54,688 nt of DNA, from positions 1-54,688 of the IMG/VR virus record IMGVR_UViG_2541047774_000008, one strand, 5' to 3'. The notes under the pieces were generated by a model. It saw nothing but the letters and a program-made list of their open reading frames with translations. It did not search any database and was not told the origin of the DNA. The DNA is from a virus (lineage: Duplodnaviria > Heunggongvirae > Uroviricota > Caudoviricetes). A program made the position numbers and the translations under genes. Positions 40,318-40,627 of the stretch are shown here, one piece after another; the first letter of the stretch is position 1; each line of letters starts with the position of its first letter.

Positions 40318-40392
40318 TGGAGCGGGCAGCGGGAATCGAACCCGCATCATCAGCTTGGAAGGCTGAGGTAATAGCCATTATACGATGCCCGC
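40318..40392 (-). tRNA. tRNA-Gly (anticodon UCC)
   Basis: 75-nt cloverleaf read by hand: acceptor GCGGGCA/TGCCCGC, anticodon loop CUUCCAA, T-loop TTCGATT, CCA encoded. Confidence 0.8.
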
Positions 40393-40395
40393 ATA

Positions 40396-40471
40396 TGGTG
40401 CCGACTACCGGAATCGAACTGGTGACCTACTGATTACAAGTCAGTTGCTCTACCTACTGAGCTAAGTCGGC
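40396..40471 (-). tRNA. tRNA-Thr (anticodon UGU)
   Basis: 76-nt cloverleaf: acceptor GCCGACT/AGTCGGC, anticodon loop CUUGUAA, CCA encoded. Confidence 0.8.
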
Positions 40472-40473
40472 AC

Positions 40474-40550
40474 TGGACCGCCACCGGGGACTCGAACCTC
40501 GCACACTCAACTTAAAGGGTTGACGCTCTTTCCTGATGAGCTAGTGGCGG
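40474..40550 (-). tRNA. atypical tRNA-like gene (anticodon loop CCUUUAA, possibly Lys-UUU-like)
   Basis: 77 nt; acceptor CCGCCAC/GTGGCGG, D-stem GCTC/GAGC, T-loop TTCGAGT, CCA encoded; C at position 33 and one A-C mismatch in the T-stem. Confidence 0.5.
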
Positions 40551-40551
40551 C

Positions 40552-40627
40552 TGGTGGCCCTTGCTGGATTTGAACCAGCGACCTGGCGATTATGAGTCGC
40601 TCGCTCTCACCACTGAGCTAAAGGGCC
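40552..40627 (-). tRNA. tRNA with CAU anticodon (Ile2/Met type)
   Basis: 76-nt cloverleaf: acceptor GGCCCTT/AAGGGCC, anticodon loop CUCAUAA, T-loop TTCAAAT, CCA encoded. Confidence 0.75.

Follow-up and report, generated by a model that had tools for sequence, protein, structure and literature searches.

A prophage tRNA array of Escherichia coli with an atypical, arginine-derived candidate lysine tRNA

Why would a temperate lambdoid phage carry, beside three ordinary tRNA genes, a candidate lysine tRNA with a body unlike that of its host's? The tRNA genes that follow the antiterminator gene Q in lambdoid and Shiga toxin (Stx) phages have long been viewed as rare-codon helpers, and work from 2023 to 2026 has shown that tRNAs of virulent phages can defeat tRNA-cleaving immune systems. 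The question is posed here by IMG/VR record IMGVR_UViG_2541047774_000008, a stretch of 54,688 nucleotides (nt) assigned to the Caudoviricetes and analyzed at its full length (hereafter the window), which is a lambdoid prophage integrated beside serU. Four minus-strand tRNA genes lie there between Q and the lysis genes: a CAU gene, an atypical gene with anticodon UUU that we call Lys*, Thr(UGU) and Gly(UCC). The reading that we favor, tentatively and with a little less than even confidence, is that the array is a functional phage cassette in which Lys* would be a lysine tRNA on a non-host body, poorly recognized by nucleases that attack tRNA-Lys.

The array consists of four real tRNA genes and is kept as a cassette in hundreds of E. 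coli prophages. ARAGORN returned all four at the coordinates first proposed for them, and the covariance-model scoring that the original prediction had suggested as a check placed each above the gathering score of Rfam RF00005 (29 bits; Table 1). The spacing of 1-3 nt likewise held up, with one nucleotide between Ile2 and Lys* (40551), two between Lys* and Thr (40472-3) and three between Thr and Gly (40393-5) by direct reading of the sequence, as did the placement between Q on one side and a holin-to-lysis block on the other. CCA is encoded by all four genes. Of 5,426 complete E. coli genomes, 601 contain at least 80% of the array, and among the matches listed the top ones are 100% identical. 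Among the species representatives of GTDB, only E. coli and Shigella flexneri have the Lys* anticodon arm together with the Lys* T arm.

Read 5' to 3', Lys* is CCGCCAC-UA-GCUC-AUCAGGAAA-GAGC-G-UCAAC-CCUUUAA-GUUGA-GUGUG-CGAGG-UUCGAGU-CCCCG-GUGGCGG-U-CCA. It forms an elongator cloverleaf, with stems of 7, 4, 5 and 5 base pairs, a 7-nt anticodon loop and a purine at position 37, and it has U8, A14, G18G19 and a GGUUCGA T-loop; the exception is an A51·C63 mismatch in the T stem. That mismatch, the encoded CCA and C33 within the loop CCUUUAA are the features that had first marked the gene as atypical, and all three are present in the sequence; they are accompanied by a C1-G72 pair and the discriminator U73. 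Canonical elongator tRNAs have U33, the U-turn nucleotide, at the position of C33. A call of a standard isotype under a different fold had been named as grounds for rejecting the first description. Both ARAGORN and NCBI PGAP do call tRNA-Lys(UUU), but under the cloverleaf first described, with no need of another fold. Reading the anticodon arm in another register, with an 8-9-nt loop or as Leu-UAA in the manner of CCTTTAA matches from IMG/VR, was ruled out, there being no complementary stem for it. In GenBank records ON470580 and ON470583 Lys* is left unannotated and its three neighbors are annotated.

The loop is that of a lysine tRNA. Aligned with K-12 lysT, it is identical except at position 33 and keeps C32, U34-U35-U36, A37-A38 and the 36-UAA-38 determinant for N6-threonylcarbamoyladenosine (t6A). 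The bases U34-U35-U36 are the main identity elements for lysyl-tRNA synthetase (LysRS), and C35 is the main one for arginyl-tRNA synthetase (ArgRS). The body is far from that of lysT and gives no sign of common descent with host or phage lysine tRNAs. C33 is found in eukaryotic initiator tRNAs. Formation of t6A needs 36-UAA-38, and the enzyme makes no base contact with U33 (PMC13276492). In tRNA-Leu(GAG) of Saccharomyces cerevisiae, likewise a natural elongator tRNA with C33 although eukaryotic, of another isotype and non-viral, function is barely affected and a C33U swap makes little difference (PMC13492127). The suggestion that Lys* has altered decoding thus finds no direct support, its loop being the host tRNA-Lys loop apart from C33 and the yeast C33 tRNA being near normal. 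A narrow scan of IMG/VR for further C33 Lys(UUU) tRNAs with the GGTTCGAATCC T-loop gave 34 matches, none of them a lysine tRNA.

The origin of Lys* lies in the argN family. It is a homologue of Stx-phage argN (80-84% identity) in the same slot after ileZ and downstream of Q, and its body is 84-87% identical to argN-family arginine tRNAs. Of the 273 relatives that Lys* has in the phage database, about 258 stand at argN-level identity (below 90%), and among the matches listed those with an annotation are all tRNA-Arg or argN, the one exception being a tRNA-OTHER of a Yersinia phage. The ileZ-argN-argO cluster of 933W and related Stx phages occupies the same place after Q and pR' and before the late genes, and it resembles the array in its first gene, which is identical to the CAU gene, and in the adjacent upstream sequence. 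Comparison with these loci also confirms that the array differs from the Ile-Arg-Arg set of Stx phages, as first noted. The Stx argN has anticodon UCG and U33, whereas Lys* has UUU and C33; a G30-C40 pair in argN is A30-U40 in Lys*, a compensatory change; and the place of the third gene, argO (UCU), is taken by Thr and Gly genes that copy host thrU and glyT exactly. Across IMG/VR, the order Ile2-Lys*-Thr-Gly was found at 96 loci and Ile2-Arg(UCG)-Arg(UCU) at 7, with an intermediate architecture, Ile2-Lys*-Arg(UCU), at 13 loci of the type seen in O157 PPompW prophages. The A51·C63 mismatch, which could have been taken as a sign of decay, is real; it is also present in Stx argN and for that reason is a trait of the family and not fresh damage, and in some alleles it has been repaired.

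A census anchored on the neighboring genes, and hence unbiased for the middle gene, covered 112 arrays and 23 alleles. In three of the 112 arrays the middle position of the Ile2-X-Thr-Gly context is taken by an Arg(UCU) gene with U33 and the same anticodon stem as Lys* (UCAAC/GUUGA); these alleles, the nearest kin of Lys*, have the repaired A51-U63 pair, and two of the three have G73. The G30-C40 to A30-U40 change in the stem therefore predates the anticodon switch. Because the Lys* loop differs from that of these same-stem arginine alleles only by U33C and C35U, Lys* is, on this comparison, an argN-family tRNA by descent that is no longer an arginine tRNA, its U35 standing where the arginine anticodon has C35: an apparent Arg-to-Lys alloacceptor shift. 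Charging with lysine would be expected, since the ArgRS element C35 is lost and the LysRS elements U34-U35-U36 are present, and might be weakened by U73. In the searchable literature we found no description of such an Arg-to-Lys switch, of a fixed C33, or of a link of Lys* to defense or frameshifting, and searches for this array or for a C33 lysine tRNA in prophages returned nothing. The annotation of the array in RefSeq is routine, and tRNA genes after Q are well known in lambdoid phages.

The case for a tRNA poorly seen by nucleases comes from positions at which published enzymes recognize or cut tRNA-Lys. AriB, the nuclease of the PARIS system, cuts host tRNA-Lys(UUU) at U36AAUC/A41 (the slash marks the cut) and also targets Thr(UGU) (PMC12409363, PMC11464382), and a U39A change abolishes its cleavage (PMC12409363). 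Lys* reads UAAGUU at positions 36-41, where the host reads UAAUCA, and lacks this site. The effector of P2-lambda interference is P2-OLD, which cuts off anticodon arms with paired CNG motifs in the stem, preferring thrU and also acting on Lys(UUU) (PMC12445682); Lys* has no such paired motifs, with no CNG at 28-30 or 40-42. PrrC cuts tRNA-Lys 3' of U33 (PMC2610378), and the scissile nucleotide 33 is C in Lys* and U in the host; a requirement of PrrC for U33 could not be established from the literature. In the screen of Govande and colleagues, expression of AriB enriched only tRNA-Lys(UUU) among the phage tRNAs, and most library tRNAs with a matching anticodon are stated to have acted as suppressors (PMC12445682).

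The tRNA-Lys(UUU) of phage T5 offers a parallel. It too is viral, has the anticodon of the main AriB target and is substituted at positions 39-41 (PMC11464382, PMC12409363), reading UAAACC over positions 36-41; Lys* resembles it in joining a nuclease-target anticodon to substitutions at published recognition or cleavage positions. The T5 tRNA belongs to a large array of a virulent phage, and its AriB resistance and rescue of infection have been shown experimentally (PMC11464382, PMC12409363), whereas for Lys*, in a temperate lambdoid phage and on an arginine-derived body with C33, resistance is a prediction. We envision that LysRS would charge Lys* through the anticodon and that Lys* would then act as a back-up lysine tRNA, so that translation of AAA and AAG could continue when such defenses fire. 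A bolder version holds that temperate lambdoid phages of E. coli have made a nuclease-orthogonal lysine tRNA from a resident arginine tRNA, by C35U and by replacement of the scissile U33 with C, and placed it under its own promoter, where it would sustain translation of lysine codons in the phage and possibly the lysogen once host tRNA-Lys has been destroyed by nucleases of the PrrC/RloC, PARIS or OLD type; in this full form the proposal seems to us somewhat unlikely. PADLOC and Pfam searches of the early-region and insert open reading frames (ORFs) found no tRNA-directed nuclease or defense gene in the prophage, with only a repressor-like HTH protein matching regulator models weakly.

Several considerations weigh against the favored reading. 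Absence of the nuclease motifs is expected of any non-lysine body and is no evidence of selection for resistance, and the anticodon-stem sequence of Lys* predates the anticodon switch. A coupling of CNG loss to the lysine switch was ruled out, the same stem being already present in the Arg(UCU) alleles. C33 removes the hydrogen bond of the U-turn, and it could simply have come along with the two changes that gave rise to the UUU loop. At the acceptor end, U73 and C1-G72 depart from the lysT family, E. coli tRNA-Lys having A73, and the Rfam match of Lys*, although above threshold, is the weakest of the four (E=3e-6 over the whole window). Lys* is also about three times more polymorphic than its neighbors, with a nucleotide diversity (pi) of 0.023-0.027 against 0.007 for Ile2 and 0.010 for Thr. 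Likely damaging alleles are in circulation. U8C occurs in about 21% of arrays, and there are also alleles with one nucleotide deleted from the D stem, with G52A, which makes a second T-stem mismatch, and with a 7-nt deletion. Finally, overexpression of host thrU gives little or no rescue from P2-OLD (PMC12445682). Because the Thr gene of the array is this same nuclease-sensitive thrU, anti-defense cannot be the logic of the whole array.

The D-stem deletion (GC-C for GCUC) is carried by O157 PPompW prophages (in PPompW_132418, locus L003, at 2591-2666) and by a few others (loci L019 and L073). The PPompW copy is annotated as tRNA-Lys, is followed by Arg(UCU) instead of Thr-Gly and has ISEc20 just downstream; it is probably inactive.

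These same signs of wear have to be set against signs of constraint, and they bear most directly on the explanation that Lys* is a tolerated relic, weakly functional or non-functional, carried along in a selected and recombining tRNA cassette. Such a relic could have arisen by two loop mutations in an argN-family Arg(UCU) gene, or by a 1-nt deletion with a compensating insertion in the C-run, and its lysine decoding would be harmless, AAA and AAG being lysine codons anyway. It would account for the lowest Rfam score, for the combination of C33, A51·C63, U73 and C1-G72, for the excess diversity and frequent damaging alleles, and for the omission of Lys* by the pipelines that annotated ON470580 and ON470583; lysine codons, moreover, are not rare, so that there is no supply-side need for the gene. 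Minimum-free-energy (MFE) folding of single tRNAs was uninformative here, real tRNAs also misfolding in silico, and it was replaced by the energy of the imposed cloverleaf and by pair counts on the alleles. By these measures the commonest allele is a clean cloverleaf of -22.3 kcal/mol, within 2.7 kcal/mol of the MFE and comparable to lysT, and over 21 distinct alleles 94% of cloverleaf cells are paired, against 29-53% in slid controls, with compensatory double changes at three stem pairs. Diversity is more than tenfold below that of the flanks (pi about 0.37), a contrast that may be overstated, since the flanks were compared at fixed offsets without alignment, which lets indels inflate the value, and may reflect mosaic recombination and not time.

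The anticodon loop tells against the relic as well. Every lysine and t6A determinant is retained in it; its 7-nt length is lost only in rare singletons among the UUU alleles; and in some backgrounds the T stem has been repaired to A51-U63 with the CCUUUAA loop kept. Among UUU alleles whose length is normal and whose loop is standard, at more than 200 loci, every one has C33, with two singleton broken alleles outside this set, and position 32 varies (C, U or A); the data are too weak to reveal selection acting on C33 as such. The suspicion that the gene is degenerate is thus supported by its polymorphism and its damaging alleles and opposed by its conservation relative to the flanks and by the compensatory stem changes. 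On balance we judge the relic unlikely, while regarding it as the best of the rival explanations.

The other three members of the array are ordinary. The CAU gene, first described as being of Ile2 or Met type, can be narrowed to Ile2. Over its full length it matches Stx-phage ileZ without a difference, and when aligned with K-12 ileX and with metT it is near ileX, including C4-G69 and C5-G68, and unlike tRNA-Met. With this ileX-like body and the PGAP label it is a tRNA-Ile2, lysidine-dependent and AUA-reading, the lysidine itself being predicted. The Thr(UGU) and Gly(UCC) genes match K-12 thrU and glyT exactly (76/76 and 75/75). They are base for base the mature genes of the host thrU-tyrU-glyT-thrT operon, although in the phage only 3 nt separate the two copies, tyrU is missing from between them and the flanks are unrelated; being identical to the host's, they carry the AriB and P2-OLD target motifs.

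Codon usage, compared between prophage ORFs and K-12 per 1000 codons, supports a supply role for these three, as the original prediction had proposed to check for late genes against the host. AUA is used at 6.7-8.5 in the prophage against about 4.3 in K-12, ACA at 11.8-19.1 against about 7, GGA at 11.8-16.1 against about 7.9 and GGG at 11.6-19.0 against about 11. Ile2, Thr and Gly would add decoding capacity for AUA, ACA/ACG and GGA/GGG, codons scarce in the host and enriched 1.6-2 times in the prophage, and they fit codon supplementation as ordinary rare-codon helpers.

Lys* could in the same way be an ordinary dosage supplement of tRNA-Lys(UUU) for lysine-rich, AAG-enriched phage genes, with C33 neutral, as it can be (PMC13492127). 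AAG makes up 0.36 of the lysine codons of late genes, compared with about 0.23 for the host; the early and inserted genes use as many as 59-62 lysine codons per 1000; and the other three members of the array fit such a role. In late genes, however, lysine codons stand at 48 per 1000, close to the host's 44 or so, with no clear enrichment, and AAA is among the commonest host codons, so that Lys* does not fit supplementation as its neighbors do. Six tRNA-Lys(UUU) genes, five of them seen here, are already available in E. coli, so that one more adds little, and a dosage role leaves unexplained why an arginine gene was converted when a host lys gene could have been captured as thrU and glyT were. 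We consider this explanation quite improbable.

A last explanation connects Lys* with the tail genes. In lambda, the U34 state of tRNA-Lys(UUU) sets the gpG:gpGT ratio and the virion yield (PMC3296357), and Lys* might tune programmed -1 frameshifting at the tail chaperone G/GT site, whatever the modification state of host tRNA-Lys. The G-like gene of the prophage (13488-13874) ends GUU AAA AAA AAG UAG, placing a slippery heptamer A-AAA-AAG directly before its stop, and the -1 frame runs into the ATG CGT TTT of the T-like ORF (13186-13476). Unlike the G-GGA-AAG of lambda, this is a dnaX-type Lys-Lys site, read in both P and A sites by tRNA-Lys(UUU) only, and an altered loop (C33, possibly another modification state of U34) would shift the G:GT ratio toward what is optimal for the phage. 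The array also pairs Lys(UUU) with Gly(UCC), readers of two common slippery heptamers, tRNA-Gly(UCC) being the P-site tRNA at lambda-type G-GGA-AAG sites. The connection is circumstantial and to our minds very improbable: in lambdoid mosaics the tail modules are shuffled independently of the tRNA cassettes, Stx phages with short tails have the homologous arginine gene without any such site, and Gly(UCC) is already accounted for by rare-codon usage.

How the array would be expressed can be read from its surroundings (Table 1). A sigma-70-type promoter ends 10 nt upstream of the first tRNA gene. Its -35 TTG and all six -10 bases are invariant in 93 related arrays in which nearly all other flank positions vary; because of these invariant hexamer bases in hypervariable flanks, there is good evidence for a predicted promoter dedicated to the array. 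Farther upstream, the 3' end of Q contains part of a putative pR'-like promoter, placed relative to Q as in lambda, and between the two promoters lies a strong tR'-like intrinsic terminator, whose palindrome the scan listed on the plus strand. The predicted transcript from the pR'-like promoter to this terminator shows weak, sub-threshold matches to IsrK and IsrJ, small RNAs (sRNAs) of Salmonella prophages, at 40733-40806 (22.7-24.5 bits, thresholds 50 and 37), and the short minus-strand RNA of 40733-40813 may be the 6S-like pR' leader RNA of this type of Q.

The array would thus be transcribed from its own sigma-70 promoter and, in lytic growth, also by Q-antiterminated read-through from pR'. 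With spacers of 1-3 nt, each cut by RNase P would leave a 1-3-nt 3' trailer on the tRNA upstream. Between tRNA-Gly and the holin gene lies a structured trailer of about 230 nt for which none of 200 shuffles was equally stable; it is laid out as three long hairpins (40133-40316), with a perfect 15-bp stem at about 40187-40257, followed by a short GC hairpin with a U-run (~40085-40110). Its sequence is poorly conserved among related arrays. The trailer presumably terminates or stabilizes the array transcript, and its hairpins may be terminators, processing or stability elements, or a mobile repeat; promoter-driven transcripts would end in it unless the polymerase is Q-modified. Taken in this way, the locus would be a phage tRNA operon complete in itself, set between Q and the lysis genes of a lambdoid prophage at serU, an interpretation that we hold at a little less than an even chance. 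The site itself is marked by a tRNA-Ser-CGA at 53708-53797 (ARAGORN), and in a collinear prophage of E. coli strain 165 the adjoining host gene is mtfA.

Table 1. Positions in the window of the tRNA genes, their neighbors and the predicted signals discussed in the text
Feature	Position	Strand	Evidence
tRNA-Gly(UCC)	40318-40392	minus	ARAGORN; Rfam RF00005, 64.9 bits
tRNA-Thr(UGU)	40396-40471	minus	ARAGORN; Rfam RF00005, 73.8 bits
Lys*, atypical tRNA with anticodon UUU	40474-40550	minus	ARAGORN Lys(ttt); Rfam RF00005, 44.4 bits; PGAP tRNA-Lys
tRNA-Ile2 (CAU, ileX/ileZ type), first gene of the array	40552-40627	minus	ARAGORN Met/Ile2(cat); Rfam RF00005, 72.5 bits; PGAP tRNA-Ile
Putative array promoter, sigma-70 type, TTGCAA-17-TATTAT	40637-40665	minus	Consensus scan
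Strong intrinsic terminator (tR'-like), between Q/pR' and array promoter	40735-40758	minus	Hairpin AAAACCCGC-CCACAA-GCGGGUUUUUU
Putative pR'-like promoter, TTGCAA-17-TATATT, overlapping the 3' end of Q	40810-40838	minus	Consensus scan
Antiterminator Q, upstream neighbor	40822-41517	minus	Pfam PF06323 Phage_antiter_Q, E=2.2e-89; RefSeq annotation
Structured trailer between tRNA-Gly and holin gene	40085-40317	minus	MFE -78.7 kcal/mol, z=-5.3
Class II holin, start of lysis cassette, downstream neighbor	39810-40025	minus	ORF; RefSeq annotation of identical region
Holin, DUF1327/YdfR-type, lysozyme and lysis genes, downstream of the array	38438-40025		ORFs, Pfam, RefSeq annotation
Slippery heptamer A-AAA-AAG, directly before the G-like stop	13491-13497	minus	Sequence reading

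The prophage carries further cargo. A full-length QueH homologue (PF02677, E=1e-65) is encoded at 44435-45121 on the minus strand, in the nin/moron region between a DUF977 gene and hok/sok. QueH is an epoxyqueuosine reductase, which performs the last step of queuosine formation at position 34 of GUN tRNAs, a step for which E. coli normally uses QueG. The gene is a second tRNA-related cargo of the same prophage; it is absent from the strain-165 version and rare among deposited phages, with 25 records, of which a single one is from a coliphage and labels the product hypothetical. Rfam also identified a Sok antitoxin RNA of a hokD-type locus (44192-44367, minus strand, 111.9 bits) and the DicF sRNA (49231-49282, plus strand, 76.7 bits), both of them characteristic of lambdoid prophages of the Qin-like kind.

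A block of about 15 kb (~20355-35313), absent from the otherwise collinear serU prophage of strain 165, interrupts the large-terminase gene of the prophage, of which an N-terminal TerL fragment remains at 35147-36340. It encodes a tyrosine integrase (33918-35177), Bro-N, an AAA_25 primase/helicase-like protein, an HK97-type capsid protein, a portal and a complete TerL (20868-22529), and from this content it looks like a cfPICI-like capsid-forming satellite or a small phage inserted in terL. Such an insertion would make the host prophage defective. No exact direct repeats of at least 8 bp were found at the ends of the block.

What Lys* means for lambdoid phages depends on which of these explanations is right. 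About one complete E. coli genome in nine has the cassette, which holds Lys-UUU and Thr-UGU, two of the main target species of PARIS and P2-OLD, and Lys* is unusual in its foreign body and in having C33, which is almost unheard-of. As a relic, Lys* would counsel caution in annotation, since the RefSeq records examined give it a plain tRNA-Lys label. If instead Lys* is functional and resistant, it would extend tRNA-based counter-defense from virulent phages to temperate phages and lysogens, provide a natural example of an Arg-to-Lys alloacceptor switch and offer a handle on the role of U33 in nuclease recognition as opposed to decoding. It would then be the first anti-defense tRNA described in a lambdoid prophage, and C33 would have its first functional role in a natural bacterial tRNA.

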